From an uncultured bacterium (lineage in GTDB: Bacteria; Planctomycetota; UBA1135), in assembly GCA_937919925.1 (NCBI GenBank), contig CALFOT010000102.1, positions 1 through 12,753 of the forward strand: a stretch of 12,753 bases of DNA, in the 5' to 3' direction. Position numbers and translations under genes: made by a program. Positions 1-12,753 of the stretch are shown piece by piece (the stretch's first letter is position 1; every line of letters starts with the position of its first letter). A model generated the notes under the pieces. That model searched no databases, was not told the origin of the DNA, and saw only the letters and a list, made by a program, of their open reading frames with translations.

Positions 1-71
1 CTCAACGGTTGGCGTTGCAACTCCTACCTGCTGTGCTGGCCCCATGGTTAGCGCGACGATCCCTGTGCGCT

Positions 72-92
72 TCCTTGCCGAAAGCGCAAGGA
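72..92 (+). promoter_or_regulatory. 7-bp inverted repeat (TCCTTGC-cgaaagc-GCAAGGA) in the 5' noncoding leader region; possible end-of-upstream-transcript hairpin or protein binding site
   Basis: Arms 72-78 and 86-92 are exact reverse complements with a 7-nt loop. No T-run follows, so it is not a canonical intrinsic terminator. Confidence 0.25.
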
Positions 93-105
93 GCCTAATC
101 CGGGA

Positions 106-131
106 ATAGTGGGAGGGAGCCATCCCACTAT
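106..131 (+). promoter_or_regulatory. 9-bp perfect inverted repeat ATAGTGGGA-N8-TCCCACTAT about 90-100 bp upstream of the sigma-54 -24 element; candidate enhancer (UAS) for a bacterial enhancer-binding protein
   Basis: Left arm 106-114 and right arm 123-131 are exact reverse complements. The position, about 100 bp upstream of the -24/-12 promoter, is the classical location of NtrC-type activator sites. Confidence 0.35.
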
Positions 132-207
132 GTGAGCCAGCATTTGCGCGGGCCTTTGTGGCTAGCGTCAACTCAAGCTGAAGGCGCCCCAGGTTGGAAC
201 ATCACTT

Positions 208-223
208 TGGCACGCGCCTTGCA
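208..223 (+). promoter_or_regulatory. sigma-54 (RpoN) dependent -24/-12 promoter, perfect consensus TGGCACG-N4-TTGCA
   Basis: TGGCAC at 208-213, spacer gcgcc, TTGCA at 219-223. The GG and GC dinucleotides are exactly 10 nt apart. The predicted TSS near 233-235 is about 20 nt upstream of the ATG at 254. An NtrC-family activator is encoded in the same gene array. Confidence 0.7.
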
Positions 224-253
224 TAACATCCAGAAACCCATGGAACTCTGAAC

Positions 254-805
254 ATGAAACTACTCACTCTTACTGTCTTAATACTCACAGCATCTTGCGC
301 TGCTCCGGAGGTTGAATCCGGTCCTGACACGATTCAACTTCGCTCAGCGATTTCAACCGCTCTTCTTGGTGGTGATGTCACCACGGCCGAAATGGCGGCC
401 CGCGAAGCAGAAAGCACTTTGCCCGGGGATGTTGTGGTTGCATTGCTCGCTGCTGAAGCGCATGCGGCTTCAGGCAACCCAAATGCAGCAATCGCCAGTC
501 TCGACCGCGCCATCATCGTGGCAACTACCGATGAGTTACTCCGACACGCTTATCGCAATCGCGGTTCACTCTATATGCAAGCTGGTCGCCCGACAGAAGC
601 ATTCGATGACCTTCAGCAGGCCTATGAACTCGGTGACACAAGCATGGCGTTACTCCGCGACCTTGGTGCCGCAGCCTATGGCTCCGGCAACTTCCAGGCT
701 GCTCGTGCGGCTTGGGAACAACTTCCCGACAACGATCGCAAGAGTGTCGACACCGTAGTCGGCCCCGGTTTTTTCCTGGAGAAGTCCGTCTCCATCAATC
801 GCTGA
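254..805 (+). CDS. secreted protein or possible lipoprotein with TPR-like repeats (183 aa)
   Basis: The N-terminus MKLLTLTVLILTASC is a classic signal peptide with a Cys at the end of the h-region; the lipobox is imperfect (T at -3). The body is Ala/Leu-rich with repeated helical pairs typical of TPR (e.g. AIASLDRAI...AYRNRGSLYMQAGRPTEAFDDLQQAYELGD). Confidence 0.8.
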   Translation: MKLLTLTVLILTASCAAPEVESGPDTIQLRSAISTALLGGDVTTAEMAAREAESTLPGDVVVALLAAEAHAASGNPNAAIASLDRAIIVATTDELLRHAYRNRGSLYMQAGRPTEAFDDLQQAYELGDTSMALLRDLGAAAYGSGNFQAARAAWEQLPDNDRKSVDTVVGPGFFLEKSVSINR

Positions 806-826
806 TCACCAACTGAGGACCCAACC

Positions 827-1864
827 ATGACCCTTTTTCTTAATCTAATCACCCTGGCTTTACTCGGGCTTCCACAACAAGAAGGCACTCAAGGTGAGAC
901 TGTGCAATCACCGTCAAGCTCGCAACAAGCCGGTGCCAGCCTCGTACTGCCCGACTTCGATCCTGCCGTTTCCTTTAATCAACTTGAACAAGGAATGCGT
1001 CGCTTGGATCCCGTCACAAAAACACTGCGTGATGCCAACGAGACCATTCATCCTCTGGTCGAGGAGTTCAAGATTGACCCCTCTCTGGAAAACCAGGCGA
1101 AACTGGAAACGGCCTTAGCGAAGTTCACCGCCGATCTTTCACGCAAGATACGCAGTGCTCTTGCTGCCCATGAAAAGGTAACCTTCGCATTTCAAGATAT
1201 CGTGCACGGTGTCAAAGGAATGGGGGTATCCCTTGAACTGTACTCTGCTGATCTGAAGCAGCAGGCCGCCACCGAAGAAGAAGCGCTCGCCGAGAGCGTG
1301 AAGCAGCTAGAGGAGGTAGCCGAGGCTTGGGATGTAGCCGAGGATGCTGAAGAAAAGGAGTCCTTGATGGAACAGTTCAAGGAGCTCTATCGGCTGCAAC
1401 AACGGCAAGTCTATCGCGCACGATATTTAGGTGCATTGGCCAATCACTACAAGGATCTTGCCGGCGGCGTGGTGCAACTGGATGGTTCCCTACGCATGGT
1501 GCATGGTCGCGTTGAGGATGCTTATGATCGGCTCGAAGATGCAGGTGAGATGCTTGCATTTGCCGCAGGCTTCCGTCGCGATGCCACCGGAATCGTAGCC
1601 CACTACCAGTCGTTCTTCGGCCAAGGGAACGATTCGGTGCGCAATGTCCTGGAGCGGATTCAAAGTATCGAAGGACGTCTCGAGATCTTCGAAGGCGCGT
1701 CCAGTGTGCTGGACGAAGCTGGTCCATTGATGCCCATGTTGCATGACATGGATCAACTCACCCAAGGCTTGAAAAACAGTGCCGAAACCGCCGACCAAAA
1801 TGAAGTGGTATCAGCCGATAGCTATTGGGAATCAAAAATGCAAAAAACCCTGCAAGGGGAATAG
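827..1864 (+). CDS. secreted acidic alpha-helical/coiled-coil protein of unknown function (345 aa)
   Basis: GAGGA RBS at 815-819, 7 nt before the ATG. The N-terminal hydrophobic signal peptide is MTLFLNLITLALLGLPQQE. The body is Glu/Ala/Leu/Gln-rich with predicted long helices. No recognisable catalytic motif. Confidence 0.8.
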   Translation: MTLFLNLITLALLGLPQQEGTQGETVQSPSSSQQAGASLVLPDFDPAVSFNQLEQGMRRLDPVTKTLRDANETIHPLVEEFKIDPSLENQAKLETALAKFTADLSRKIRSALAAHEKVTFAFQDIVHGVKGMGVSLELYSADLKQQAATEEEALAESVKQLEEVAEAWDVAEDAEEKESLMEQFKELYRLQQRQVYRARYLGALANHYKDLAGGVVQLDGSLRMVHGRVEDAYDRLEDAGEMLAFAAGFRRDATGIVAHYQSFFGQGNDSVRNVLERIQSIEGRLEIFEGASSVLDEAGPLMPMLHDMDQLTQGLKNSAETADQNEVVSADSYWESKMQKTLQGE

Positions 1865-1900
1865 AGAAATAACCCTTTACTAAACAACCATCGAGGAATC

Positions 1901-2464
1901 ATGATGAACACAATCCTACTGTTTTTCCTGGCCGCAATGCCGCAACAGGAATTCGCCTCTGCACAAAGCGCATATGAGCAAGTGCAGCCCACCCCTTCCG
2001 AAACGGTTCAAGTCCTGGTTGAGCGTAACGAGTTCACTCTCGCTCGTGTGACTGAGTTGGAAAGGCGCATAGCTGCCGACGAGACAAAATTGATTGAACT
2101 GGATCGCTTAGAGGTTGAGCGCTATTTGGCACTCAAAGCTCACTTCACGGATAAGGAGCTTGAGAAACGCCTTCAGGCCGAAGCGCGTACTTTCGAACTT
2201 CGCCGCAAGGGAGTCAAGCAGTCCATCGAACTGACCAACATCAACTTAGAAGATGCTCGCAATCGACTTGCTAAGTTGGACGTGGATCTTCGTCTCGCAC
2301 GCATCGAGCAAGGTCTTGTTCAAAACACAGAGCCTGCACCTGGAACGCCAGTGGCGGATCGGCTTGAAGCCCGTTCACGCACCGTTCTTCTGGATCGCGC
2401 AATGGCCGTCGGCAAGTTTGATTTCGTGTCGATTCCGCACTCTTGGGTCACATTGGAATTCTAA
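1901..2464 (+). CDS. secreted coiled-coil protein of unknown function (187 aa)
   Basis: GAGGA at 1893-1897 just upstream of a tandem ATG ATG. The signal peptide is MMNTILLFFLAAMPQQEFASA. Charged heptad-like stretches follow (ELERRIAADETKLIELDRLEVERYL..., LAKLDVDLRLARIEQ). Confidence 0.8.
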   Translation: MMNTILLFFLAAMPQQEFASAQSAYEQVQPTPSETVQVLVERNEFTLARVTELERRIAADETKLIELDRLEVERYLALKAHFTDKELEKRLQAEARTFELRRKGVKQSIELTNINLEDARNRLAKLDVDLRLARIEQGLVQNTEPAPGTPVADRLEARSRTVLLDRAMAVGKFDFVSIPHSWVTLEF

Positions 2465-2476
2465 GGAGTGCGAATC

Positions 2477-3268
2477 ATGCGTTGTGCGGAACCCATTGCG
2501 TGGATTGTCTCAATAGGAGTTCATGCCTGGCTATTGATGCCAGTGCTTGCAGAAACAAGTGGGCAGTCAACATCGGCAGAAGATGTTGCAACTTCGATAG
2601 TAGCAGTGGCGGTTGTCGCCGAACGCCCCCCTTCAAAGGTCGAGGTTGAACCTGAACAGGAGCCGGAGTATTTGGAAGAGGAGATGGCATCACCGGTGGA
2701 GTTGCGCCCCGCTGACGAGCTCGCTGTGTTTGAGGAGGATGGCGATTCTTGGGAGGAGTCACTGGCAGAACCAGAAGGCAGCGGAGAATCGTCACCAGCA
2801 TCAGCAATGGTGTTTTCCGATGATGCCGTGCGAGCGCTGAACTTGGTGCTGGATCTTTCGGATCATGATCTATTCCTTTCTGCTGCTCAGGACTTAGAGA
2901 TACGTTTCCTCATCTATCCGGCTTCTAAGTCTCCCAAGTGGGTACTTGAGTTACATGGCCCTGGTCTTGAATCGGTGGCACAAATAACCCCTGATTCTTT
3001 GGGTCAGCTTTCCCGTCGCGCGCACGATTTGACTCCCGATCGGTTTTTCCGCACAATTCGCAATCGTGCAACACAATCGGCTGGATTTCCCTCAACCGGG
3101 GCTCGTTTGGTTGCTGCAGTACCCGCTGGAACCGACAAGATGTTCCTTGCTGCGGAAAGGAGTTACCTCCAACAAGCTGGGCCTGCAGCAGCTCAAATGA
3201 GAACTCTGCATGGGTGCCTTGTCCGCGACGGCAGCACTTGGCAGTTAGAGATAACGGGGGGGGTGTAG
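2477..3268 (+). CDS. membrane-anchored protein with TonB-like N-terminal SxxxH transmembrane anchor and acidic Glu/Pro-rich spacer (264 aa from ATG 2477; the longest ORF begins at GTG 2468)
   Basis: AGGAG at 2464-2468 is 8 nt before ATG 2477. The GTG at 2468 overlaps the RBS and is unlikely to be the start. The TM segment IAWIVSIGVHAWLLMPVL carries the S-x3-H spacing seen in the TonB anchor. It is followed by the acidic stretch VEVEPEQEPEYLEEEMASPVELRP. I cannot recognise a TonB C-terminal domain. Confidence 0.75.
   Translation: MRCAEPIAWIVSIGVHAWLLMPVLAETSGQSTSAEDVATSIVAVAVVAERPPSKVEVEPEQEPEYLEEEMASPVELRPADELAVFEEDGDSWEESLAEPEGSGESSPASAMVFSDDAVRALNLVLDLSDHDLFLSAAQDLEIRFLIYPASKSPKWVLELHGPGLESVAQITPDSLGQLSRRAHDLTPDRFFRTIRNRATQSAGFPSTGARLVAAVPAGTDKMFLAAERSYLQQAGPAAAQMRTLHGCLVRDGSTWQLEITGGV
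3256..3263 (+). repeat. G8 homopolymeric tract immediately before the stop codon of CDS 2477..3268
   Basis: A direct read gives ...acg ggg ggg gtg tag. The tract lies at the junction of two reading frames that are both open here (the 2477 frame and the 3214/3331 frame). Confidence 0.9.
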
Positions 3269-3330
3269 AATCTGAACCTCTTGGCCTCTTTCCAGCTACC
3301 CACCCCCAATTCCTGTTCTTCGGAGAACCC

Positions 3331-4845
3331 TTGGCTCATCTCTTAGTCGTTGACGATGCTTATCATAAAGTCCGCTCTGGTCTTGATGCGGTATTGGATG
3401 AACACCGGGTCTCTGGTGCCACCGACGGCGCCGCGGCTCTGCAGCTGATTGAATCCGAACCTTCCATCGACGTTGTGCTGCTTGATGTGCGCATGCCTCC
3501 TCTGGTCGGCAAGATTGAAGAAGAAGAAGGGTTGGCGGTATTCGAGAAAATAAAGGAGATTCGACCAGAGTTGCCGGTGATTTTCCTTTCGGCTTACGAC
3601 GATCTCCGCTTAGTGAATCGCGCTTTGACAGCAGGTGGTTTTTGGTATTTGAAGAAGCCACCAGACTTAGAGGAGACTCGAAGTTTAGTGCGCCGGGCAG
3701 TCGAGCTGAGCCTTGCACAGAGGGAATCTACCGAGAGGCGCGCTGCAGCGGAAGCTCGTCTCCAAGTGGTATCGCGTACGGGGATTCGCAGACCTAATAG
3801 TCGGCTGGTTGGTGATTCATTCGTTCTTCGTCAACTCAACTTAGAGTTGGCGATGTTCGCGGCAACGGATGTTCCTGTACTTTTGCTTGGTGAGACAGGT
3901 TGTGGCAAAGAGCTGTGTGCCCATGAACTTCACGATTTGTCTGCTCGTCGAAGTGGCCCTTTTATTGCTGTCAATTGTCACGAGCTTAATCATAGTGAAA
4001 CTGCTCAGTCGAGGTTGTTCGGCCATAGCAAAGGAGCCTTTACCGGTGCTGTTGAAGACACGCAAGGAGCCTTTGAATCGGCTCATGGTGGCACATTGTT
4101 CCTCGATGAAATCGGCGATTTAGATCTTGATATGCAAGGCCGGTTATTGCGCGTACTTCAAGAGCGTGAGGTCGTGCGCATCGGTGCTGGCGAACGCCCT
4201 CGCGCCGTAGATGTGCGCATGGTCTTTGCCACCAATCGGAATCCCGAGGTCCTTGTAAGTGAAGGTATCGTTCGAGAGGATTTCTACTATCGAATTGCAG
4301 TCGGGGTAGTGAGAGCACCGGCGCTTCGTGAGCATCTCGATGATTTGGAGTTGCTGGTGCCGGCTTTGTTGCAAGCTTCTCTTGTCAGGGATCGGATTCC
4401 TGAATGTACCGTAAGTACTGCTGTTTATCCTTTGCTTTGCAACCACAATTGGCCAGGCAACGTGCGTGAGTTAGAGAATGTTTTGAAAAGGGCTGCCGTG
4501 CGAGCAGCCTCTCAAGGTGTCATCTCACCAGAGCACATTGATTTGCCAAGAGATACCGTTGCCTCAGCCACTTCGGCAACAATCTCAGGCGATTTGTTCA
4601 CAGAGATCTTGGGAAATGGGGGGTACTCTGACGGCTTGAAGCGATTCCGAGACGAATACGGAGAAATCGCAATGCGTGAGGTCCTGACCAGAGCGGTACG
4701 TCTCTCGGGTAGCGTGGTGCGCGCCGGTGAACTGCTTGGCTTTGTTCACCCGGACAGCCGAGCGAAGGATTATGAGAACCTTCGAGCTTGGATGAAAACT
4801 CTTGGCTTGCGCAAAAGTGATATCGCAGAAGGAGGTCTCGCGTGA
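3331..4845 (+). CDS. NtrC-family sigma-54-dependent transcriptional activator / response regulator (receiver + AAA+ sigma-54 interaction domain + Fis-type HTH); likely TTG start at 3331, while the ORF-track frame opens at 3214
   Basis: Receiver motifs are present: LLVVDD, phospho-Asp context VVLLDVRMP, and the conserved Lys in WYLKKP. The AAA+ domain has Walker A GETGCGKE, the sigma-54 contact loop GAFTGA, Walker B LFLDEIGDL, and R-finger/sensor regions VRMVFATNRN and EDFYYRI. The C-terminal HTH is ...RAGELLG.... GGAGA at 3320-3324 lies 6 nt before TTG 3331, and the receiver fold begins at MAHLLVVDD. The stop overlaps the next start (GTGA at 4842-4845). Confidence 0.9.
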   Translation: MAHLLVVDDAYHKVRSGLDAVLDEHRVSGATDGAAALQLIESEPSIDVVLLDVRMPPLVGKIEEEEGLAVFEKIKEIRPELPVIFLSAYDDLRLVNRALTAGGFWYLKKPPDLEETRSLVRRAVELSLAQRESTERRAAAEARLQVVSRTGIRRPNSRLVGDSFVLRQLNLELAMFAATDVPVLLLGETGCGKELCAHELHDLSARRSGPFIAVNCHELNHSETAQSRLFGHSKGAFTGAVEDTQGAFESAHGGTLFLDEIGDLDLDMQGRLLRVLQEREVVRIGAGERPRAVDVRMVFATNRNPEVLVSEGIVREDFYYRIAVGVVRAPALREHLDDLELLVPALLQASLVRDRIPECTVSTAVYPLLCNHNWPGNVRELENVLKRAAVRAASQGVISPEHIDLPRDTVASATSATISGDLFTEILGNGGYSDGLKRFRDEYGEIAMREVLTRAVRLSGSVVRAGELLGFVHPDSRAKDYENLRAWMKTLGLRKSDIAEGGLA

Positions 4846-6467
4846 GTGAATTGATTTGCCCGGATTGTGAACAGCAGCTTGATGGCATCATAGATTTCTG
4901 TACGAACTGCGGCGCCAATCTTGAAGAAGTCGACGCCGGCAGCGACGTTTTCTTTGCGGACTCAGATTTTGAGACCACTGCTGAGGAGCCGCCTTCGCTG
5001 GAATCCTCCACTGTCATTTCGATGGAACCGATTGTTGCTCCATCGCCGCCGCCTGTTATCGCGCCACGAGTTGAAATTCCTTCTTCCAACGATGACCCCC
5101 CAAACCTGGTCATGGATACGGGGGTAAGCGCTCGCGTTGGTGAAAATGGTGTCCTCTGGTTCGGATTGGCGAACAATCGAACCTCCCGGATTAATGCTCG
5201 TCTTGCCGTCAATATGGATAAAGGGGCTCGCGAGATGTTTCACCATTTCAATGGGGAGCGCGAGCTGCGCGTTGGGCCATCCGGCGAAGGTACTGCTTCA
5301 GTTTCGTTCCGCGCTCAAGTAGCAGGTGAGTTTCCGCTTTCGGTCCGCCTCTTCGTCGAAGACTACCGTGCAAGCGGGAAGGTTTCATTCTACCAGGTTG
5401 CCGATCACTGTAAGGTTTTCTTCGGTATCTCTAGTCAACAAAGCGGTGGTTCCATCACCGTGCACAACGAAGTTTGTATCGATCGAAACTATGGCGGCGA
5501 TATCAGCATTCGCCCTGAAGCTCTGCGCAGCATTCAGGAGAAAATGGGAGTTAACGAAGGCGCAAACAGAGCTGCTCCCCAGGAGTTGCCGCTGGAGGCG
5601 CCAGAATCTGTGCAGGGTTGGATACAGCACTCTAGAAACGCCATTCGAGGTTCTCATCTCCGCTTGGATGTCATGCGGCTCGATAAGTTGTATCGGCGTT
5701 TCCATATCCTGGTTTGTAACGAACTCTGGTTTGGTCGTAATGATGTCACGCAACTTCCCGGAGGTCGTAGAGGATTCAACACCCTTGCTTTGCGTTGGCT
5801 TCCCTGTCGGTCAAAAGAGCAAGACCCTAAGAGTTTTTCCTTTAATCAGTCCATCAGCCGCCATCATGCCGGCATGTTGCATGCCGATGAAGCTGGCACA
5901 GCTATTAACTGTTGCTCCAGCTCACTTCAGGTAGATACCCATCAACTTGGCAAAGGAGATTCGCAGCAGTTTCATGCTGGATCCGCCTATCGACTCAAGC
6001 TCGGACATCCGGCCCTTGAGTTTGATATCACTCCTTTGACGACTTCGGGAGAGGATCCTTCGCAATGGTTGCGGGATTGGAACCAATTTACAGGTATGAG
6101 TGGAGCGATTGTTCATCCAACGCGTCACGATGCGATTCGAATCGACCGTGTCAATAACTTGGAGCAAGTCAGTTACGTCATGCTCCTGCAGTCTGCATCC
6201 ATTGGCGGTGGGCGCCGAGATGCTTGTTTTGTCAAGGGACTGCCCCCCGCAGTCTTGAGACTCGCGCGTTGTGGATCCAACCTATTCGTCTTGACTGGCC
6301 CAGATTTTGTAAATCAAGGTACTGCTGCTGCCGACGAAAGGTATTGGCGACCAATATGCGCAGGCGATCGGTACGACTCGGGCGAGTGGAGCTACCGGTT
6401 TTCGACATCTTCGGTTTCCGATACCAAAAGAGAAGATGATTTGGTGAGTGCCTTGGAGGACGAATGA
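4842..6467 (+). CDS. N-terminal zinc-ribbon (DZR-type, CxxC-N11-CxxC) protein with a central FHA-like domain (541 aa), GTG start
   Basis: GGAGG at 4831-4835 is 6 nt before GTG 4842. The N-terminus is MSELICPDCEQQLDGIIDFCTNCGANL, followed by a Pro-rich linker. The FHA signature elements are WFGRN...SISRHHAGM...EAGTAINC...LGKGDSQ...YRLKLG. The loop between the first and second FHA elements is longer than usual, so the call is moderate. Confidence 0.6.
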   Translation: MSELICPDCEQQLDGIIDFCTNCGANLEEVDAGSDVFFADSDFETTAEEPPSLESSTVISMEPIVAPSPPPVIAPRVEIPSSNDDPPNLVMDTGVSARVGENGVLWFGLANNRTSRINARLAVNMDKGAREMFHHFNGERELRVGPSGEGTASVSFRAQVAGEFPLSVRLFVEDYRASGKVSFYQVADHCKVFFGISSQQSGGSITVHNEVCIDRNYGGDISIRPEALRSIQEKMGVNEGANRAAPQELPLEAPESVQGWIQHSRNAIRGSHLRLDVMRLDKLYRRFHILVCNELWFGRNDVTQLPGGRRGFNTLALRWLPCRSKEQDPKSFSFNQSISRHHAGMLHADEAGTAINCCSSSLQVDTHQLGKGDSQQFHAGSAYRLKLGHPALEFDITPLTTSGEDPSQWLRDWNQFTGMSGAIVHPTRHDAIRIDRVNNLEQVSYVMLLQSASIGGGRRDACFVKGLPPAVLRLARCGSNLFVLTGPDFVNQGTAAADERYWRPICAGDRYDSGEWSYRFSTSSVSDTKREDDLVSALEDE

Positions 6468-7489
6468 GCCGTTTCGAAGAACGTATTCGCGCTGCCGAGG
6501 AAAGGGCGAAGGGTAGAGTCCAAGCGGCAGCAAACTGTCATTCCGCCTCGCCTGCGGAGCGTGGCACATGGGCTGAGTATCGGGAGCGCATGGACAGCCT
6601 ACGCAAGGAAATCGACAATCGGTTTCAATCGACCGGAAGTTATCAGAGCAAGGAATGCGGCCCTTTAGATCGCATTTTCCTCGAGCGTGCACTTTCCGCC
6701 CTGAAGCATGGCCTCGTTGAATCCTGTTTCTACAACTTAAGGATTCTCGCCCAAAAGGTGGCCCTCGATAGAGGGAGCCAAGACTTGAGCGCCCTGACCA
6801 CTGCTGGTGAGCGAGTACCGACGGTACGCAAAGAGCTTGGCTTGTTCCTTCAGGGCCGGGTTCCATGTGGAATCCTGGTGGCTGATCTTCTCCCAGATTT
6901 GGCGAGTGTTTTTTTGAAAACACTCCCGTTGCTTGAAGGTGCCGTAGTGGGAGGCTTGGCGATGGCGAAGGAGATTCCAGCTTTGGTAGATGCCGTCCTT
7001 TCGGGCATCGCAAGAGAAGCTGATAGTCTGCGCTCTCAGCGATTATCCTTATTCGCTCTTGTGCGTCGAGCATTGGAGATTGAAGGGCCAAGACTTCAAG
7101 AAGCGGACATGGATGTAAGCGTTGAAAACGAAGTGGAAGACGATCGCATTCATGCTGATGAACCACGTCTTCTCGATACTATCGTTGAGTTGTTAAGAAA
7201 CGCCGCAGTTCATCGAGAAGGAAGTGGTCGCGGGAAGGTGGTCATTAACTTGAGGCCGCGCGAGAACTATATTCACCTTGTGGTCTCAAGTCGACCTGCT
7301 CTTCCACCCCTCATCCCTCTTAATCGACTTTTCGAGACCGGAGTCTCGCGGAGGGAAGGTGGGGGCGATGGGCTTGCAACCGTCCAGCGCACCTTGACTT
7401 CCCATGGTGGCAGGGCGGAGCTTCAGTTTTCTTGTGGCAGTGGCACCTTCGACGTTTGCCTAGCCTTGCCTACCCGGCTTCCGGTTTAG
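6464..7489 (+). CDS. atypical histidine-kinase-like ATPase (GHKL/HATPase_c at C-terminus; no clear H-box; degenerate G1 box) (341 aa)
   Basis: ATGA overlap with the upstream stop (6464-6467). The N-box is LLDTIVELLRNAAVH, the F-box is LFETGVSRR, and the G2 box is GGGDGLATVQRTLTSHGG, with the typical HK ending GSGTFDVCLALP. The expected G1 position reads VVSSRPALPP instead of DxGxG. The N-terminal 230 aa are helical; H26 is the only weak H-box candidate. Confidence 0.65.
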   Translation: MSRFEERIRAAEERAKGRVQAAANCHSASPAERGTWAEYRERMDSLRKEIDNRFQSTGSYQSKECGPLDRIFLERALSALKHGLVESCFYNLRILAQKVALDRGSQDLSALTTAGERVPTVRKELGLFLQGRVPCGILVADLLPDLASVFLKTLPLLEGAVVGGLAMAKEIPALVDAVLSGIAREADSLRSQRLSLFALVRRALEIEGPRLQEADMDVSVENEVEDDRIHADEPRLLDTIVELLRNAAVHREGSGRGKVVINLRPRENYIHLVVSSRPALPPLIPLNRLFETGVSRREGGGDGLATVQRTLTSHGGRAELQFSCGSGTFDVCLALPTRLPV

Positions 7490-7498
7490 CCAAGCCGG
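7474..7498 (+). terminator. GC-rich 7-bp hairpin (CCGGCTT-N11-AAGCCGG) spanning the stop codon of CDS 6464..7489; possible weak or partial terminator or mRNA-stability element without a U-tract
   Basis: Arms 7474-7480 and 7492-7498 are exact reverse complements. It is followed by cccaggaatcgggg rather than a T-run. Confidence 0.2.
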
Positions 7499-7538
7499 CC
7501 CAGGAATCGGGGATAAATGAATCACATTTGGTGAGTTC

Positions 7539-7585
7539 CCCTGCATCTCAGGGAGTCTGGATTCACAAAAAACACCGATGCAGGG
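7539..7585 (+). promoter_or_regulatory. 9-bp perfect inverted repeat CCCTGCATC-N29-GATGCAGGG directly upstream of the second sigma-54-like promoter; candidate regulator binding site
   Basis: Arms 7539-7547 and 7577-7585 are exact reverse complements separated by 29 nt. The centre lies about 40 bp upstream of the -24 element at 7598. Confidence 0.3.
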
Positions 7586-7597
7586 CGTAGATGGCAG

Positions 7598-7613
7598 TGG
7601 CATGATGGTTGCA
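7598..7613 (+). promoter_or_regulatory. sigma-54-type -24/-12 promoter with one mismatch: TGGCATG-N4-TTGCA
   Basis: TGGCAT at 7598-7603, spacer gatgg, TTGCA at 7609-7613. The GG/GC spacing is correct. It sits in the only sizeable intergenic gap (119 bp) of the array, immediately upstream of the lipoprotein gene. Confidence 0.5.
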
Positions 7614-7635
7614 CTCTTTCATTGTTGTCCCCCTG

Positions 7636-8748
7636 ATGACTACCATGCGAATCATCATCATTACTACATTGAGTCTCGTTGGCTGTGTGAGCCCCCCTCT
7701 TGGCTCTACTTTCGAGGATGCTCAGTCTCTCGCTAATCGCGGGGAGTTCGGAGCTGCAGTAGCTGTAGCAGAACCGCTGCTGCTCAGAACAACTTCAGTT
7801 TCTACACTTGAGGAGGTCTGTGGGTGGGCGCTAAAGGCCGGGCGGATGGAGCAGGCATATGATTTCTCCAATCGGCTCATCGGCTTCGAATCCCAATCAT
7901 GGGTTGGCCATCGCACTCGTGGGCTGGCTCTTGTTTCTTTAAAGCGGCTCAGTGCTGCGATTCCAGATCTTGAGTTTGTCCATCGTAATGGCCCGCCAGA
8001 TTCTGAAGTTCAACGCGCCCTTGGTCTTGCGATGGAATTTGTTGGAAGAGATCCAGGCAAGGCAAACTCCCTGCTAGTTTTATCTGGCTTCGATGATGAT
8101 GAGGTGACCGCCGCTCTCAGCCGCCTCGAAGTTCTGCTTCATCCCGCGCCACTGCCTTCCGTCACAGTTACCGACGAACCTGCCGCATGGACTCAAGTCG
8201 CCGCACTTGATTTGGCCACGACATGTTTTGTCTTAGATGAGCAGCTGAGGCTTTCGGGCTTCCTTCTCAAAAACCAGGAAGCCGCTGCTCTTACCGGCGA
8301 CGAATATGCATCTGGCTTACGCGCTGCCGACCGTCGTCGAGATGCTGCTGCCCTTGTCGACCTTCCAGACGAAGATGGCACAGCCGCCGTTCTCACTCAT
8401 TTCGTCGAAGTCGGTCTACTGAGTGTCGACAACAACAAAATCAACCCCGACGAGATTCTCCAGCGTGGTCAGTTTGCACAACTTGTAACGGACCTTCTGC
8501 GATTACTCGAGGAGGATAAAGGATTTGCGGTTGGAGGTGACGGTGAATCTCCTTTCTCGGACATGAGCGTTCGGCATCCCCGCTTTGCGGTTGCGAGCGC
8601 AGCTTGTGCGCTTGGTGTTCTGCACGCAGACGCATCGCGACGTTTTCGGCCTTCGGACCCGCTTTCTGGCGCGGAACTTTCCGACGCTCTCGACCTACTT
8701 CGCGAAGTTCTTCTTCGTTCTCCGCTTTACCAAGAGATGATTCGATGA
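7636..8748 (+). CDS. lipoprotein with TPR-like helical repeats and two C-terminal SLH (S-layer homology)-like repeats (371 aa from ATG 7636; the track ORF opens at TTG 7609, which overlaps the promoter)
   Basis: The lipoprotein signal is MTTMRIIIITTLSLVGC (lipobox LVGC). The SLH-like motifs are LPDEDGTAAVLTHFVEVGLLSVDNNKINPDEILQRGQFAQLV and FSDMSVRHPRFAVASAACALGVLHADASRRFRPSDPLSGAELSDAL. Both follow the F-x-D...A...G(I/V/L)...F-x-P...(I/L)-(T/S)-R/G-A-E pattern. Confidence 0.7.
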   Translation: MTTMRIIIITTLSLVGCVSPPLGSTFEDAQSLANRGEFGAAVAVAEPLLLRTTSVSTLEEVCGWALKAGRMEQAYDFSNRLIGFESQSWVGHRTRGLALVSLKRLSAAIPDLEFVHRNGPPDSEVQRALGLAMEFVGRDPGKANSLLVLSGFDDDEVTAALSRLEVLLHPAPLPSVTVTDEPAAWTQVAALDLATTCFVLDEQLRLSGFLLKNQEAAALTGDEYASGLRAADRRRDAAALVDLPDEDGTAAVLTHFVEVGLLSVDNNKINPDEILQRGQFAQLVTDLLRLLEEDKGFAVGGDGESPFSDMSVRHPRFAVASAACALGVLHADASRRFRPSDPLSGAELSDALDLLREVLLRSPLYQEMIR

Positions 8749-9803
8749 TAGCCCTCCTTTCGATTGCCTGTTTTGCTTTGGCTCAGCCACTTGTGGCTTT
8801 ACCGGCACAAGAACCTAGTCATGATGTCTCGGATCAATCTGCAAGGTCGACTTCACTCGAGGTCGCAGGAGAAGCTGTTGGGCTTACTCGTGAAGCTGCA
8901 ATATCCGCTGCGAAACAAGATGCCATGTCGCGCGCGATTCAGGAACTTTATCGCGAAGAAGGTCTTGCCGCACCCCTGCAGGCTGTTGCCGATCGCTTAG
9001 CAGCGCTGGATCGTTCACTCGGTGGTTTTCTTGCCGCTGAGACTCTTGATTCTGAATGGAAGGAAGAGACTAGTCTCGCGAAGGTTCGCTTGAAAGTCGA
9101 AGCCGACATCGTCGCTTTTCGTCGCTGTGCTTCACGTGCTCTGCGTGTGCAAGTAATTTGCACAGGCCCCCTTTCAGACCAGATTGCATCCAGTTTCAAG
9201 GAGAGGCTTGCCGCCGAAGGTTTTGAGGTGGTATTGGGTGGATCGCGGGAAGGCGCCGATGCGATTGTCATCGCCAAGCCGGTGCTCGATAAATTGCCAG
9301 GCGGCGAGGCAGGTTTCTCTTCTTGGCGCGGCGCCCTCACGATTGAAGTTCATTCGCTCTCGATGCGTGACGACGCCACAGTTGTGCTTGCTGATCGTCG
9401 ATTCGAACCAAAGGGAGCCATGGTCGGCAGCAATGCCCGTGAAGTGGCACGGAAGACCATCCTTCCGCTTTGTTCAGAGGCGGCAGATCTTGCCGCACAG
9501 CGTATTTTGAACGCAGCTTCGGCAAGTGCCCGTTGGACAATCTCCGTCGAAGGCGCAACCGAACGCTACCTCGTCGAAGATTTGCTCGACGCCATTACCC
9601 AACGAGGTGTTTCTGCCGGCGTGGTGGGGGTTAGTTCTCTCAGCTGGGATCCTCCGAATGCAACCTTCCGGTTGGTCGTCGATCGTCGTGGGGCGAATCG
9701 CCTTGGTGGTATCATGGGCACTCTGGATTTGTCTGAAGGTAGGCGGGTGCGGGTGTTACGCGAAGCAAACTCAACCATGATCGTTAGAATTGAATCCTCC
9801 TGA
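8745..9803 (+). CDS. secreted protein with N-terminal LPP20-like domain (353 aa from ATG 8745; the track ORF is artificially extended upstream to 8604)
   Basis: ATGA overlap with the stop of the lipoprotein gene (8745-8748). The signal peptide is MIALLSIACFALAQPLVALPAQEP. EVAGEAVGLTREAAISAAKQDAMSRAIQELY resembles the LPP20/FlgP-type lipoprotein fold signature. The C-terminal half (GADAIVIAKPV...LTIEVHSLSMRDDATVV) weakly resembles the CsgG/FlgO-type motif. Confidence 0.55.
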   Translation: MIALLSIACFALAQPLVALPAQEPSHDVSDQSARSTSLEVAGEAVGLTREAAISAAKQDAMSRAIQELYREEGLAAPLQAVADRLAALDRSLGGFLAAETLDSEWKEETSLAKVRLKVEADIVAFRRCASRALRVQVICTGPLSDQIASSFKERLAAEGFEVVLGGSREGADAIVIAKPVLDKLPGGEAGFSSWRGALTIEVHSLSMRDDATVVLADRRFEPKGAMVGSNAREVARKTILPLCSEAADLAAQRILNAASASARWTISVEGATERYLVEDLLDAITQRGVSAGVVGVSSLSWDPPNATFRLVVDRRGANRLGGIMGTLDLSEGRRVRVLREANSTMIVRIESS

Positions 9804-9810
9804 TTTTGTC

Positions 9811-10899
9811 ATGTATTTCCTTCTCACTCTTCCTCTCGTTCTGTTTCAGAACGGCCCCTCTCAGCTCGATGAGATTCTTCCCAGTCGAGCCGAAAGCCTT
9901 GCTATTGAGCTCGCCGCTGACTTGAATGAAAGCGGTATTCTCGGAGAGCATGGCATCCAAGCGTTCGCCTTCCCAGGTGCAATCGGTGATGTACAAGGCG
10001 CTTTTCATGACCGCCTTTTAAATCACATGTTGCGCGACTTTGGCTTGGAGTTGATTGCCGAGCGCGAAGAAAGGGTTCAAATACTGCAAAACTATTTCCG
10101 TAAAGATGGTTTTGAACAAGGCATCTATGATGGTGGCAGCCTAAAGAGTCTTGGTGGACAATTTTTGGACAACGAGGCGATTCTCGGCGCCAGAATTTAT
10201 TCGGTGGACGGAGCGGATGGGTTAGAGATATATGCTCAAGCTGAACTTTGGGATGCACGCCGCGCCGTCATGGTGTGGAATAAAACGATATCGCTCTTGG
10301 TGAAGGAACCGGTTTCTCCGCCTGTTGTCGTAGAGAAAGAGGAATCCTTATTCGTGCCAGTCCTAATCATTCTTGCTGGAATCATCGCCGCGATCGCCAT
10401 ATTCAGTCTAATGAATCGCAGGGAACAGATTGCGAAGGCTCAGCGACGTGGAGGGGCATCTATCGAGAGGCAATCGCAGAAAAAGCGCGACCGTGATTTG
10501 CGAGGTGAGGCTGCTCGACGAGCGCATGCAGGAGCAGATCGCTTGACCGCAGCAGCAAGCCAAGTCGATGCCGCAGCTCGTTCTATCTTCGAAAATTCAG
10601 GTGAAGACTTACGGTCGCTCGCAAGGAATTTCGAGAAGGCTGCCGCAGGTACATTTCGCCGTCCCGTAGAGGAGCGAGGTGATTCAGAGATTGCTGCTGC
10701 ACGCGCCCTAGCTGACCATGACGAACGTACACTCGGCCTAGTAGAGGAAATGGGTCGTACTGTTGATACCCTAGTTGCCGGGGCTTCTTCTGATTCCGCT
10801 GAGGCGGTAGCTAAGTTGGCTGCCAAGCTAGAAGACCTCATCCAGAGTGCTAATCACCGTCTCGGAGAACGCACTGACCTGATTCGTTCCAGTAGTTAA
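9811..10899 (+). CDS. bitopic membrane protein: signal peptide, periplasmic CsgG/FlgO/TolB_N-like motif domain, single TM helix, cytoplasmic charged coiled-coil tail (363 aa from ATG 9811; alternative TTG 9790)
   Basis: The N-terminus is MYFLLTLPLVLFQNG. The periplasmic region FAFPGAIGD...GLELIAEREERVQILQNYFRKDGFEQGIYDGGSLKSLGGQFLDNEAILGARIYSVDGADGLEIYAQAELWDARRAVMVW follows the motif ER..l..il.E...q.sG.yd....k.lG...gadaii.G.i......g..i.a.l.d..tg.vvw. The TM helix is LFVPVLIILAGIIAAIAIFSL, followed by an Arg/Ala/Glu-rich tail. Confidence 0.55.
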   Translation: MYFLLTLPLVLFQNGPSQLDEILPSRAESLAIELAADLNESGILGEHGIQAFAFPGAIGDVQGAFHDRLLNHMLRDFGLELIAEREERVQILQNYFRKDGFEQGIYDGGSLKSLGGQFLDNEAILGARIYSVDGADGLEIYAQAELWDARRAVMVWNKTISLLVKEPVSPPVVVEKEESLFVPVLIILAGIIAAIAIFSLMNRREQIAKAQRRGGASIERQSQKKRDRDLRGEAARRAHAGADRLTAAASQVDAAARSIFENSGEDLRSLARNFEKAAAGTFRRPVEERGDSEIAAARALADHDERTLGLVEEMGRTVDTLVAGASSDSAEAVAKLAAKLEDLIQSANHRLGERTDLIRSSS

Positions 10900-10907
10900 T
10901 AATTGTC

Positions 10908-12533
10908 ATGACCCCCTTCTCATTTCTGAAACGATGCCCTGAGTGTAAGAACAAGCTAGAGCGGGGAGCTAATTTTTGCGGGTGCGGTGCGCCGGTGCGT
11001 GACTTTCGTCGCACTTGTCACCACTGTCATCGCATCGTTGATGCCCAAGCGGAAAGGTGTGCTCATTGCAACGCCCTTCTTGCAGAGGTCGAACCTCGCT
11101 ATGTTTTGATTCGCTGGGCTCGCCGTTCGCGTGAATTTGCCCGACGCATTGATGTTGTGGCCTTCACGGAAGGCGAAGAGGTAATCACAGATTCGGGCGC
11201 GGCACTTCAGGGTGCACTTGATGGTGGTGTTACGGTCGAAGCCGGGACGAAAGCGTTACTTCTTGTTAACGGTAGCTTGGAGAAGGTGCTTGAGCCCGGT
11301 TGGACTTCCACAACCAGCGATGCTCTCTCGGTTTATTCAGGTGAAGAATATATTCACACTTTGACCGTGATTGCTGTTGACTCAAGCGACACCGATTTAG
11401 CATGGCGATTCCCGCTTGCACTTGACTCGAACTCGGATGCCGGTGATGAGAAATCTTCCGCGATGGCGCTCGTCACTAAAGATGGGTTTCGTGTTGCGCT
11501 AAGGTTAGGGATTACCATTAGCCTTGCCGATGCAGCGGCCTTGGCGAGTAATCTGCTCAAGGAGCAAGTTTCCATTACTGTCAGTAGTCTCGCCGCTTGG
11601 CTTGCGCCTACGGTAGACGCCGCTGTTCGAGAACTCGTTGGACAGACCGATAGCGCAGAATTAAGAACGCCAGATAGCAATTGGCGTAGCCAATTTGAAG
11701 GTTTGTTGCGCGATCGACTCCAGCGTGACCTTGAGGTTGTTGGCCTCCGAATGGAAAGGCTCAGGGGTTTTGGGCTGGAGAGTCCTAGGCTCAAAGAGTT
11801 GGAAGACGATCGAGAAACCACTGCAGTCATTCGTGGCAAGGCGGGAGAGGCTCGAGCAAGACTTGAGCACATCGAGAATCTTCAAGATGCACTTGTCAAG
11901 AAACGTCGTCTCGATGACAAGGCACGTCTGGAAATCGAGAAGTCGGGCATTCTCACCGACGCAGAGATTGCCGAACTTAATCGCCATGCAGATGATGAGG
12001 AACTCGGTTGGAAACACGCGCGCGAAATGTTGGCCGCGAAACACGCTGCAGGGGTTGAAGAAATATCGAAACGTGCGTCCTTGAAGCTATTCGTCGAAAG
12101 GAAGGAAGAGGAAATTCGTCTTGATGACAAGCGCAAGCGGCTCGATATGGACCGAGATGAGCGGGAACGCGATCACGAGGCTGATGTCGCTCTGAAAATC
12201 ATTGCTGCCAAACAGCAACATAAAATGGAACAGATTCAGGTCTTCCAGGATTGGGATGATCCCGAGAAAATCCTTACCGTTCTTGCTGGGATTAGTCCGG
12301 ATGCTGCAGAAGCACTTCGTGCAAAATATCAGCGTGCCAACGACGATGACCGCGTTGAGTTGCTCAAGGAAATGCAAGGAGAAATGTCCAAGGTTCAACA
12401 GTCTGCGATGGGTGGAATGGCCAGTGTTGCAGCGGCAAAGGCAACCACACGGTTAATTCCATGTCCACATTGTCGCATCAATGTTTCCGTTGATACAACG
12501 AAGTGCCCCTCTTGCGATAAGCTTGTGAAGTAG
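10908..12533 (+). CDS. soluble zinc-ribbon / SPFH (band-7, flotillin-like) / coiled-coil protein with two N-terminal and one C-terminal zinc ribbons (541 aa)
   Basis: The N-terminus contains CPECKNKLERGANFCGCGAPV and CHHCHRIVDAQAERCAHCNALL. The SPFH motifs are VEAGTKALLLVNGSLEKVLEPGW and MALVTKDGFRVALRLGITISLADAAALASNLL, plus a downstream GLRMERLRGFGL region. A long E/R/K/D-rich coiled coil follows. The C-terminus is IPCPHCRINVSVDTTKCPSCDKLV. No TM segment. Confidence 0.7.
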   Translation: MTPFSFLKRCPECKNKLERGANFCGCGAPVRDFRRTCHHCHRIVDAQAERCAHCNALLAEVEPRYVLIRWARRSREFARRIDVVAFTEGEEVITDSGAALQGALDGGVTVEAGTKALLLVNGSLEKVLEPGWTSTTSDALSVYSGEEYIHTLTVIAVDSSDTDLAWRFPLALDSNSDAGDEKSSAMALVTKDGFRVALRLGITISLADAAALASNLLKEQVSITVSSLAAWLAPTVDAAVRELVGQTDSAELRTPDSNWRSQFEGLLRDRLQRDLEVVGLRMERLRGFGLESPRLKELEDDRETTAVIRGKAGEARARLEHIENLQDALVKKRRLDDKARLEIEKSGILTDAEIAELNRHADDEELGWKHAREMLAAKHAAGVEEISKRASLKLFVERKEEEIRLDDKRKRLDMDRDERERDHEADVALKIIAAKQQHKMEQIQVFQDWDDPEKILTVLAGISPDAAEALRAKYQRANDDDRVELLKEMQGEMSKVQQSAMGGMASVAAAKATTRLIPCPHCRINVSVDTTKCPSCDKLVK

Positions 12534-12561
12534 CGGACTTCAGCCTCGGACGATTCCTGAA

Positions 12562-12753
12562 ATGCGCTGCACCACCTGCGGATTTGAAAATTCTGGCACA
12601 GCCAAATTCTGTGCCGAATGTGGTGCCAGGATTGCGCCGCCTTCCTCATCGGCCCAAGTTCCTGACGCAGAGCTTTCACTCCAGCCCACCCTCGGCTCTG
12701 GTCCTCCATCGGACTCCCCAGCAGCGTTAGCTGGCTCCGAATCCCTCATCGCC
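12562..12753 (+). CDS. 5'-partial CDS (continues past window end): N-terminal zinc-ribbon protein with Pro/Ser-rich linker
   Basis: ATG at 12562, open to the end of the window (64 codons), so it is absent from the ORF track. MRCTTCGFENSGTAKFCAECGARI is the same CxxCG-N9/11-FCxxCG zinc-ribbon pattern as at the N-termini of CDS 4842 and CDS 10908. Confidence 0.6.
   Translation, partial: MRCTTCGFENSGTAKFCAECGARIAPPSSSAQVPDAELSLQPTLGSGPPSDSPAALAGSESLIA

Follow-up and report, generated by a model that had tools for sequence, protein, structure and literature searches.

ExbB/ExbD-type 5:2 motors power nutrient import (Ton), outer-membrane stabilization (Tol-Pal), and gliding (Agl-Glt). Planctomycetal envelopes are architecturally unusual, and the genes behind them are largely unknown. 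TonB and TolA bind their motors through an S-x3-H motif in the transmembrane (TM) helix (PMC12204202), and force transducers with non-TonB C-terminal domains are encoded beside tolQ/tolR and TPR genes in the Planctomycetes-Verrucomicrobia-Chlamydiae (PVC) group (PMC12204202). Here we describe a locus from an uncultured planctomycetal bacterium (lineage UBA1135), the larger part of which, out of ~17 kb, is a stretch of 12,753 nucleotides (contig CALFOT010000102.1, positions 1 to 12,753; this whole stretch is called the window below). From its sequence, we give a probability of about 0.55 that the locus encodes an inducible trans-envelope complex powered by the proton motive force (PMF) and placed under a circuit of Ser/Thr kinase, FHA protein, second kinase, and transcriptional activator.

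The system falls in the Ton/Tol/Agl class of PMF-driven envelope systems because an ExbB/ExbD motor starts the locus. A first-pass annotation of the window had proposed an uncharacterized envelope-spanning system; that core idea stands, although the motor makes the system a variant of PMF-driven trans-envelope systems. The same annotation saw no canonical component of any known machine, which is correct inside the window but not for the locus, where exbB and exbD lie directly upstream under a sigma-54 promoter of their own. Profile searches assigned the gene set to no known system. The apparent novelties are the protein families, a TonB-like anchor that ends in a new output domain, the triad of activator, FHA protein, and kinase, and a possible link to a hypermutating kinase.

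The motor, its promoters and the gene map

On longer copies of the window contig, exbB and exbD are found directly 5′ of the window. Their products belong to the MotA/TolQ/ExbB family (PF01618, 8.9e-19) and the ExbD/TolR family (PF02472, 1.1e-19), and the ExbD translation carries the Asp of the TolR-like IPLLDVIF motif. Both proteins score best against TolQ/TolR and ExbB/ExbD models, far below the NCBIfam equivalog cut-offs (38 versus 221 bits for TolQ). Twelve open reading frames (ORFs), g1 to g12, follow in the window. All are on the plus strand, with little space between them and an overlap of 4 nt at g5/g6, g6/g7, and g8/g9, which agrees with the earlier description of one strand-coherent block. 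Gene starts were taken from gene calls on public copies of the contig. The features of the window are:

110–127, no strand assigned: candidate activator palindrome TGGGAGGGAGCCATCCCA (TGGGA-N8-TCCCA), 98 bp upstream of the g1 promoter
208–223, plus: predicted sigma-54 promoter TGGCACGCGCCTTGCA, exact -24/-12 elements, 31 nt before the g1 ATG
254–805, plus: g1, TPR lipoprotein of 183 amino acids, lipobox LTASC (Pfam TPR_2 8.7e-11, TPR_19 3.9e-10)
827–1864, plus: g2, exported all-helical protein of 345 amino acids
1904–2464, plus: g3, exported coiled-coil protein of 186 amino acids with the invariant motif LDRLEVERYLALK
2477–3268, plus: g4, candidate bitopic TonB/TolA-like transducer (TM helix motif, linker, C-terminal domain)
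3331–4845 (likely TTG start), plus: g5, sigma-54 enhancer-binding protein of 504 amino acids (Pfam), with helices in its C-terminal region
4842–6467, plus: g6, zinc ribbon, beta-rich domain, and divergent FHA module (family profile)
6464–7489, plus: g7, soluble histidine-kinase-like GHKL ATPase (Pfam HATPase_c 2.1e-7)
7509–7526, plus: candidate activator site GGGGATAAATGAATCACA, a degenerate form of the palindrome that lies 89 bp 5′ of the g8 promoter
7598–7613, plus: predicted sigma-54 promoter TGGCATGATGGTTGCA, one mismatch, in the g7–g8 gap before g8
7645–8748, plus: g8, TPR lipoprotein (lipobox LVGC) whose C-terminal SLH-like repeat is borderline
8745–9803, plus: g9, exported protein of 352 amino acids without a family match
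9811–10899, plus: g10, bitopic membrane protein, TM helix at residues 180–198
10908–12533, plus: g11, double zinc ribbon, SPFH/Band 7 domain, coiled coil, and C-terminal zinc ribbon
12562–12753, plus: g12, zinc ribbon followed by a Hanks-type Ser/Thr kinase, cut by the window end

The predicted compartments span the envelope, with two lipoproteins, three exported proteins, two bitopic proteins together with ExbBD, and five cytoplasmic proteins. Searches of Pfam, NCBIfam, and the PDB gave no family match for g2, g3, g6, g9, g10, or the C-terminal domain of g4.

The likely partner of the motor is g4. Its single TM helix has the pattern W-x2-S-x3-H-x3-L, in which the His is invariant in 5/5 lineages and the Ser of S-x3-H is present in 4/5. 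The helix is followed by an acidic, Pro-rich, low-complexity linker and then by a well-conserved C-terminal domain of ~150 residues, for which a three-sequence profile found no match among PDB sequences. We regard g4 as a candidate TonB/TolA-like transducer with a new type of output domain; the TonB-like anchor of the first-pass annotation is retained for the helix and linker but not for the C-terminal domain, which does not match TonB_C.

At the g4 stop codon is a poly-G tract (window 3256–3263, plus strand). It is G8 in most assemblies and G9 in two independent ones (ERZ27058894 and ERZ964665), where g4 is in frame with g5 as a 789-amino-acid fusion; one of the G9 contigs is otherwise identical to the window. 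The tract is not kept in two related contigs (L017 and L018, below), and the G8/G9 difference is either slipped-strand (phase) variation or a homopolymer error.

Transcription appears to be organized in three sigma-54-dependent units: exbB-exbD, upstream of the window; g1–g7; and g8–g12. When the promoter consensus TGGCAC-N5-TTGCW was scanned over the 13.2-kb locus, two exact sites were found against 0.01 expected, and tolerance of one mismatch raised the count to four (0.55 expected). One exact site is 21 nt before the exbB start. The other, before g1, begins at window position 208, where the feature noted earlier starts, and fits the sigma-54 governance claimed for it; nothing points to control of the nitrogen type that had also been suggested. 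Upstream of the exbB promoter is the candidate palindrome TGGGAGCCGCCACTCCCA, a counterpart of the sites before g1 and g8. The pattern KGGGA-N8-TCMCA occurs at only three sites in 13.2 kb, each 68–98 bp upstream of one promoter, a count that is purely descriptive as the pattern was derived from the sites themselves. In the distant contig L018, promoter-like GG-N10-GC sites precede exbB, g1, and the fused g8::g9 gene, and palindromes of the TGGGA-N8-TCCC type lie upstream of the g1 and g8::g9 sites; no palindrome of that kind was found upstream of L018 exbB. The three predicted promoters, all on the coding strand and between genes, and their common upstream palindrome argue for co-regulation of the units.

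The fourth sigma-54-like site, TGGCCCTTTTATTGCT, has one mismatch and sits inside the g5 coding region (window 3954–3969, plus strand). It could be a chance occurrence or an internal promoter for g6–g7. Sigma-70 promoter-like and terminator-like sites in the window were no commoner than in shuffled sequence, an Rfam scan of the window gave no match, and G+C content is even across it at 51–55%. Minus-strand ORFs of 200–294 amino acids overlap conserved plus-strand genes and were considered spurious.

Between exbD and g1 there is also a polytopic membrane ORF of 190 amino acids (L007 1944–2516, ending within window 1–98). No known family matches it, its L009 copy from the same species is shorter by ~365 bp, and L018, L020, and the 66% relative (all described below) lack it. 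It was dropped as a system member, being poorly conserved, partly deleted in L009, and missing in three lineages, and is probably not part of the system.

The signaling proteins and the envelope components

The enhancer-binding protein, the kinase-like protein, and the FHA protein named in the first-pass annotation were all recovered. g5 combines a REC domain (PF00072, 2.8e-16) with an AAA+ Sigma54_activat domain (PF00158, 1.1e-56), and its motifs are intact: Walker A and B (GETGCGKE and LFLDE), GAFTGA, VVDD, and LLD(52)V with the receiver Asp52. It reaches no NCBIfam equivalog cut-off, the best being NtrC at 315 versus 559 bits. No Pfam HTH_8 match was found at its C terminus, although alignments to the RtcR and PEP-CTERM regulator models reach within a few residues of the end. 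A GTG start at 3214 (543 amino acids) was rejected in favor of the TTG at 3331 (504 amino acids) on the basis of the lengths of its relatives and the MAHLLVVDD beginning.

There was no direct Pfam FHA match for g6, and the assignment comes from its family profile. A profile of the five-member family was run over 1.84 billion representative proteins and, apart from family members, retrieved proteins that align to g6 residues 275–480 with E-values down to 3e-19; 32/48 of these match Pfam FHA (PF00498), and a protein kinase domain is present in 10/48. For P0031 and P0034, the stretch aligned to g6 encloses the Pfam FHA domain, and g6 itself has the signature FGRND...SISRHH. By transitive homology, then, g6 is assigned as a divergent FHA protein, whose module has homologs that are fused to Ser/Thr kinases. 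In the PDB searches, ArnA, a zinc-finger/FHA protein of Sulfolobus, came no closer than E = 1.5, and that match ran through the zinc ribbon.

g7 is a GHKL ATPase with an HATPase_c domain, an invariant N box (LLRNA), and an invariant G box (GGGDGL). An invariant His82 sits in LSALKHGxVES, its most conserved helix. Wherever context could be seen, g7 lies directly 3′ of g6.

The part of g12 inside the window matches Pfam Zn_Ribbon_1. The longer copy in L001 matches Pkinase (5.4e-33) and a PknB-type model (5.7e-54), and the gene at this position in the 66% relative encodes 736 amino acids. With g12 a Ser/Thr kinase, the FHA protein g6 has a candidate partner. Zinc ribbons are unusually common among the cytoplasmic proteins, at window 4842–4910 (g6), 10935–11070 and 12462–12515 (g11), and 12562–12630 (g12). 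Because they recur in g6, g11, and g12, a shared docking mode is suggested.

Exported TPR and coiled-coil proteins had been proposed, and the lipoboxes of the TPR proteins g1 and g8 (Pfam; N-terminus inspection) and the N-terminal signal-like segments of g2, g3, and g9 fit that description. g2 is the most conserved structural gene, with 64% identity where g6 has 35%. Its AlphaFold model (predicted local distance difference test score [pLDDT] 80) shows a small helical head and an elongated bundle whose helices reach 73 residues; it represents g2 as a long exported helical bundle of ~100 Å. Generic helical bundles dominated the fold search. The best natural matches were the ClyA-family toxins XaxA, YaxA, MakE, AhlC, and ClyA, at Foldseek E-values of 0.018 or worse and TM-scores of ~0.4; membership of g2 in the ClyA family was not accepted, the fold matches being non-specific. 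PDB sequence searches with g2, g6, and g8, and with profiles of g4, g9, and g6, returned nothing below E ~0.2.

The hydrophobic N-terminal segments of g2 and g3 (window 827–900 and 1904–1970) have no basic n-region. They are followed by a common P-Q-Q-E/D motif (LPQQEG and MPQQEF) that recurs in orthologs, and g9 has LPAQEP. This motif may be a lineage-specific export or processing signal.

The SLH assignment of g8 is kept as a lead only. The repeat scores 19.3 bits in the whole protein and 21.5 bits in the C-terminal fragment, against a Pfam cut-off of 20.8, and the L018 ortholog scores 14.4 bits in the same place. LPP20 and CsgG labels had been given to g9 and g10, and neither was matched in Pfam, NCBIfam, or the PDB, and both labels are dropped here; the sole trace in that direction was FlgT_N at E = 0.4 in the L018 ortholog. 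The L018 g8::g9 fusion protein shares 49% identity with g9 over its C-terminal half. g9 and g10 have no similarity to each other, which ruled them out as paralogs. g10 consists of a periplasmic alpha/beta domain, the TM helix at 180–198, and a cytoplasmic helical tail. An AlphaFold model from a two-sequence alignment had a pLDDT of 54, below 50 in the periplasmic domain, and only the cytoplasmic helices were confidently modeled.

g11 is the cytoplasmic SPFH/zinc-ribbon protein anticipated from the window. It matches DZR (3.6e-7) and, above the cut-off, Band_7 (PF01145, 1.3e-9), ends in another zinc ribbon, and has no TM or hydrophobic segment; its L018 ortholog has a weaker Band_7 match of 22.3 bits. 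There is a precedent in B. subtilis YdjI for a TM-less SPFH protein that is recruited by membrane partners (PMC8581546).

Conservation, mechanism and rival explanations

Nine lineages were sampled and eight were examined for gene context, the ninth being P0002 (87% g6 identity, on a 5.3-kb contig). A word-index search of 5.8 billion proteins found five clusters of the g6 family and seven of the g2 family, and an exhaustive search by profile contributed a few further full-length relatives of g6, which are more distant. The named relatives are metagenome-assembled genomes (MAGs) of Planctomycetota and point to a planctomycetal origin of the window. A scan of GTDB genomes with the g6 alignment returned one Planctomycetota MAG only, and among JGI metagenome contigs, the g2 alignment found the NIOZ contig only. 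The window species itself is present in more than 30 independent aquatic metagenome assemblies at 99.7–99.99% identity. Public copies of its contig (L001–L014) are 12.6–15.4 kb long and end in the FGE hypervariable region upstream and the g12 kinase domain downstream; the breaks are probably due to the hypervariable region and the repeated kinase domains at the two ends. The gene order in the relatives is:

66% relative: exbB to g11 fully syntenic, then a gene for 736 amino acids
L020 and L015 (same sample): FGE-exbB-exbD-g1-g2-g3-g4-g5 and g5-g6-g7-hemA-hemC, respectively
L017 (NIOZ-UU38): g2 to g7, then unrelated ORFs
L016 and L022: g5-g6-g7
L023 (TARA): g3-g4-g5-g6, with 25% g6 identity; the contig begins inside g3
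L018: g8::g9-g10-g11-zinc-ribbon remnant-exbB-exbD-g1-g2-g3-g4-g5

Orthologs occur together in every contig examined, in eight of nine lineages, and none of the examined contigs had a family member away from its expected neighbors. The order g5-g6-g7, whole or in part, is kept in every one, down to 25% g6 identity. Genes of this triad are accompanied by g2–g4 in L017, L018, and L020 and by g3–g4 in L023, and exbB-exbD-g1 precede g2 in L018, L020, and both JGI contigs. Orthologs of g1 are found in L018 and L020; of g3 in L017, L018, L020, and L023; and of g10 and g11 in L018. Only in the two closest lineages does the g8–g11 block follow g7; in L018 it precedes exbB, and g8 and g9 are fused there into one protein of 734 amino acids (L018 1885–4089). 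This permuted order, together with the fusion, is the strongest evidence that g8–g11 belong with the rest. Between g11 and exbB in L018, a short zinc-ribbon ORF from 7074 resembles a remnant of the g12 kinase gene. Comparison of g2 with plasmids and of g6 with phages gave no match, and a mobile-element origin was set aside on those results.

Directly upstream of exbB in the same species, on an 18.8-kb JGI contig, there is a row of bAvd, an RVT_1 reverse transcriptase gene, and a gene for a 1033-amino-acid Ser/Thr kinase that ends in an FGE-sulfatase domain. At the 3′ end of this target gene (L007 1–570), 15/25 consecutive codons differ between L007 and L009, which are otherwise near-identical. 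The changed codons are mostly NNC and altered at positions 1 and 2, which is the signature of a diversity-generating retroelement (DGR), and the combination of Avd, reverse transcriptase, and a hypervariable FGE-sulfatase target has the layout of a DGR. In the 66% relative, an RVT_1 gene and a kinase/FGE gene precede exbB, and in L020, the 3′ end of an FGE-sulfatase gene is directly before exbB (67% identity). DGR-targeted kinases are known from cyanobacteria (PMC7517822).

In the mechanism we propose, g7 would activate g5 by phosphorylating Asp52, and g5 would bind the TGGGA-N8-TCCCA-type sites ~70–100 bp upstream and open sigma-54 complexes at all three promoters. g6, apparently translationally coupled between g5 and g7, would link the phosphorylation step to phosphothreonine marks, which a Hanks kinase (g12 and/or the neighboring hypervariable kinase) would write. 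The place of g5–g7 in unit 2 would make the circuit positively autoregulated. The ExbB/ExbD proton channel is predicted to engage the His-containing TM helix of g4 as ExbBD and TolQR do with TonB and TolA. g4 would then span the periplasm by its disordered acidic, Pro-rich linker, and its C-terminal domain may act on exported partners: the helical bundle g2, the coiled coil g3, and the TPR lipoproteins g1 and g8. g8 may hold peptidoglycan through its SLH-like repeat and act with g9, and g10 would cross the inner membrane and dock the TM-less g11 by its cytoplasmic helices. The net effect would be to carry force from the inner membrane to the outer layers in the manner of Tol-Pal or Agl-Glt, with envelope stabilization, a surface structure, or defense as candidate outputs.

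Several points weigh against this reading, the main caveat being that unrelated genes follow g7 in L015 (hemA and hemC) and L017, where g8–g11 are not adjacent on that side. The family is known from short metagenomic contigs only. Searched alone, the C-terminal domain of g4 had no Pfam match even at E = 10 and no similarity to TonB_C or TolA, and no TonB-dependent receptor, TolB, Pal/OmpA, or outer-membrane beta-barrel was found among the locus genes on contigs of 15–21 kb. g7 has no Pfam HisKA match, its His82 is unusually far from the N box (164 residues), and it may not be a histidine kinase at all. On the promoter side, the palindrome was defined from its own sites, and its third copy, before g8, is degenerate. 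Finally, domain content, predicted compartments, promoter motifs, and synteny are what the data provide, and we infer everything beyond them.

The caveat about g8–g11 bears most directly on the possibility that the locus serves two or three separate functions with a common regulator, in which exbBD-g1–g4 and g5–g7 form a Ton/Tol-like unit and g8–g12 an independent SPFH module for membrane organization or stress, along the lines of pspA-ydjGHI in B. subtilis. This is unlikely, though with a real chance of being correct: besides its absence after g7 in L015 and L017, the g8–g11 block moves as a unit in L018 and has its own promoter, and zinc-finger SPFH proteins act in membrane-stress modules (PMC8581546). 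Against such a division, g8–g11 abut exbBD/g1–g7 genes in 3/3 lineages that have them, in differing order, all units share one promoter type and one upstream motif, and the locus genes include no PspA homolog. A further proposal, which we consider speculative and unlikely, is that the DGR-diversified kinase is a receptor that signals through g6, g7, and g5 to an ExbB/ExbD-powered trans-envelope machine of new families, with poly-G slippage perhaps as an extra on/off switch. The conserved adjacency of the locus to a DGR-targeted kinase raises the possibility that hypermutated sensors control an envelope program; if so, ligand recognition that evolves at an accelerated rate would be tied directly to envelope remodeling or defense on demand. 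The locus could also serve an inducible defense or conflict response, with the DGR kinase sensing a variable foreign ligand and signaling through g6, g7, and g5 to sigma-54, g2 acting as a ClyA-like membrane-active effector, and the other genes handling g2 or protecting against it. The DGR cassette or FGE gene before exbB in the window species, the 66% relative, and L020 would suit this role, as would the known DGR-diversified kinases and sensors (PMC7517822; PMC10907252) and the ClyA-family fold matches of g2. However, PADLOC on 15 proteins gave generic matches only (the kinase domain to PD-T4-6 and MAD6, the AAA+ domain to RtcR models, and weak ZorA [MotA family] and TPR matches) and recognized no defense system. 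A conflict effector would not usually rank, as g2 does, with the best-conserved proteins of the locus, and L018 has g8–g11 upstream of exbB rather than a kinase/FGE gene. We consider a defense function quite unlikely.

The locus might also be an ordinary TonB-dependent uptake system, or the organism's equivalent of Tol-Pal, with the homology hidden by divergence. The best scores of ExbB and ExbD against TolQ/TolR and ExbB/ExbD models, the TonB/TolA layout of g4, and a TPR lipoprotein by the motor that recalls CpoB, itself a lipoprotein in most non-proteobacteria (PMC12204202), can all be read in this way. It is nevertheless very unlikely, because those scores are far below the family cut-offs, ~17–21 kb contain no TonB_C, TolB, Pal/OmpA, or TonB-dependent receptor, the close relatives of g2 and g6 in the word-index search form only 5–7 clusters, unlike a housekeeping system, and three sigma-54 promoters imply on-demand expression. 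An apparatus for surface motility or adhesion analogous to Myxococcus Agl-Glt/Nfs would use the same kinds of part, namely, a TolQR-type motor, bitopic transducers, TPR lipoproteins, and FHA and zinc-ribbon modules (PMC11761067). There is, however, no sequence match to the Glt, Agl, or Gld families, one ExbD is present instead of two TolR-like proteins, the FHA module and zinc ribbon are on a soluble protein of the regulatory triad and not on the transducer, and the locus has no outer-membrane barrels or adhesin, which leaves this role scarcely probable. The inducible, PMF-powered trans-envelope complex is the reading we prefer. On this reading, a compact, self-regulated cluster with promoter and operator candidates would be a tractable way into the planctomycetal envelope.

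Comparison with described systems

The regulatory part of the locus is closest in layout to FlgS/FlgR of Campylobacter (NtrC family), where a REC-AAA+ GAFTGA activator is also encoded with a cytoplasmic kinase-like protein and -24/-12 promoters also drive envelope-structure genes. In contrast to FlgS/FlgR-type systems, a zinc-ribbon/FHA protein is placed here between activator and kinase, the kinase has no recognizable HisKA, Hanks kinases flank the locus, and no equivalog model is reached. Full-text literature searches returned no description of this triad (a REC sigma-54 activator, a zinc-ribbon/FHA protein, and a HisKA-less kinase), in which Ser/Thr and two-component signaling would be wired into sigma-54. 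The g10–g11 pair is comparable with pspA-ydjGHI of B. subtilis, a stress-type operon in which a TM-less zinc-finger SPFH protein is likewise encoded beside possible recruiting membrane proteins. The present locus differs in having no PspA, in a g10 that is unrelated to YdjG/YdjH by the searches run, and in belonging to a diderm with a periplasmic module.

In overall design, the locus resembles Agl-Glt/Nfs of Myxococcus xanthus (PMC11761067), with a TolQR-like motor, TonB-like transducers, periplasmic TPR lipoproteins, cytoplasmic FHA and zinc-ribbon modules, and parts in every envelope layer. The resemblance does not extend to homology of the non-motor parts: no Pfam or NCBIfam match to Glt homologs was found (GltG/GltJ TonB-CTD transducers or GltA/B/H/K barrels), and the domains are spread over different polypeptides. 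Outer-membrane barrels, an adhesin, MglA, and AglZ are absent, and the locus has a dedicated transcriptional activator. The vWA-type transducers of the PVC group (PMC12204202), reported from Planctomycetes, share with g4 a His-containing TM helix of the SHLS type, a disordered linker, and a non-TonB globular domain, and they too are encoded next to tolQ/tolR-like and TPR genes. They differ in that the ~150-residue domain of g4 has no Pfam vWA match, the locus has a single ExbD where they have a heterologous pair, and their description includes neither genes such as g2/g3 and g8–g12 nor a sigma-54 circuit.

With Ton and Tol-Pal, the locus shares a MotA/TolQ/ExbB channel and an ExbD/TolR partner with a TM Asp, the S-x3-H helix and disordered Pro/acid-rich periplasmic linker of g4, and a TPR lipoprotein encoded beside the motor, as CpoB is in non-proteobacteria. 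It departs from both in that g4 has no TonB_C or TolA_C, the locus has no TolB, Pal, or TonB-dependent receptor, and the motor proteins score far below the equivalog cut-offs. Sigma-54 and phospho-signaling control, together with ~7 extra proteins of unassigned family, set it further apart, and it would add another client system to the ExbB/ExbD-type motors, with ~6 partner families that lack characterized relatives.

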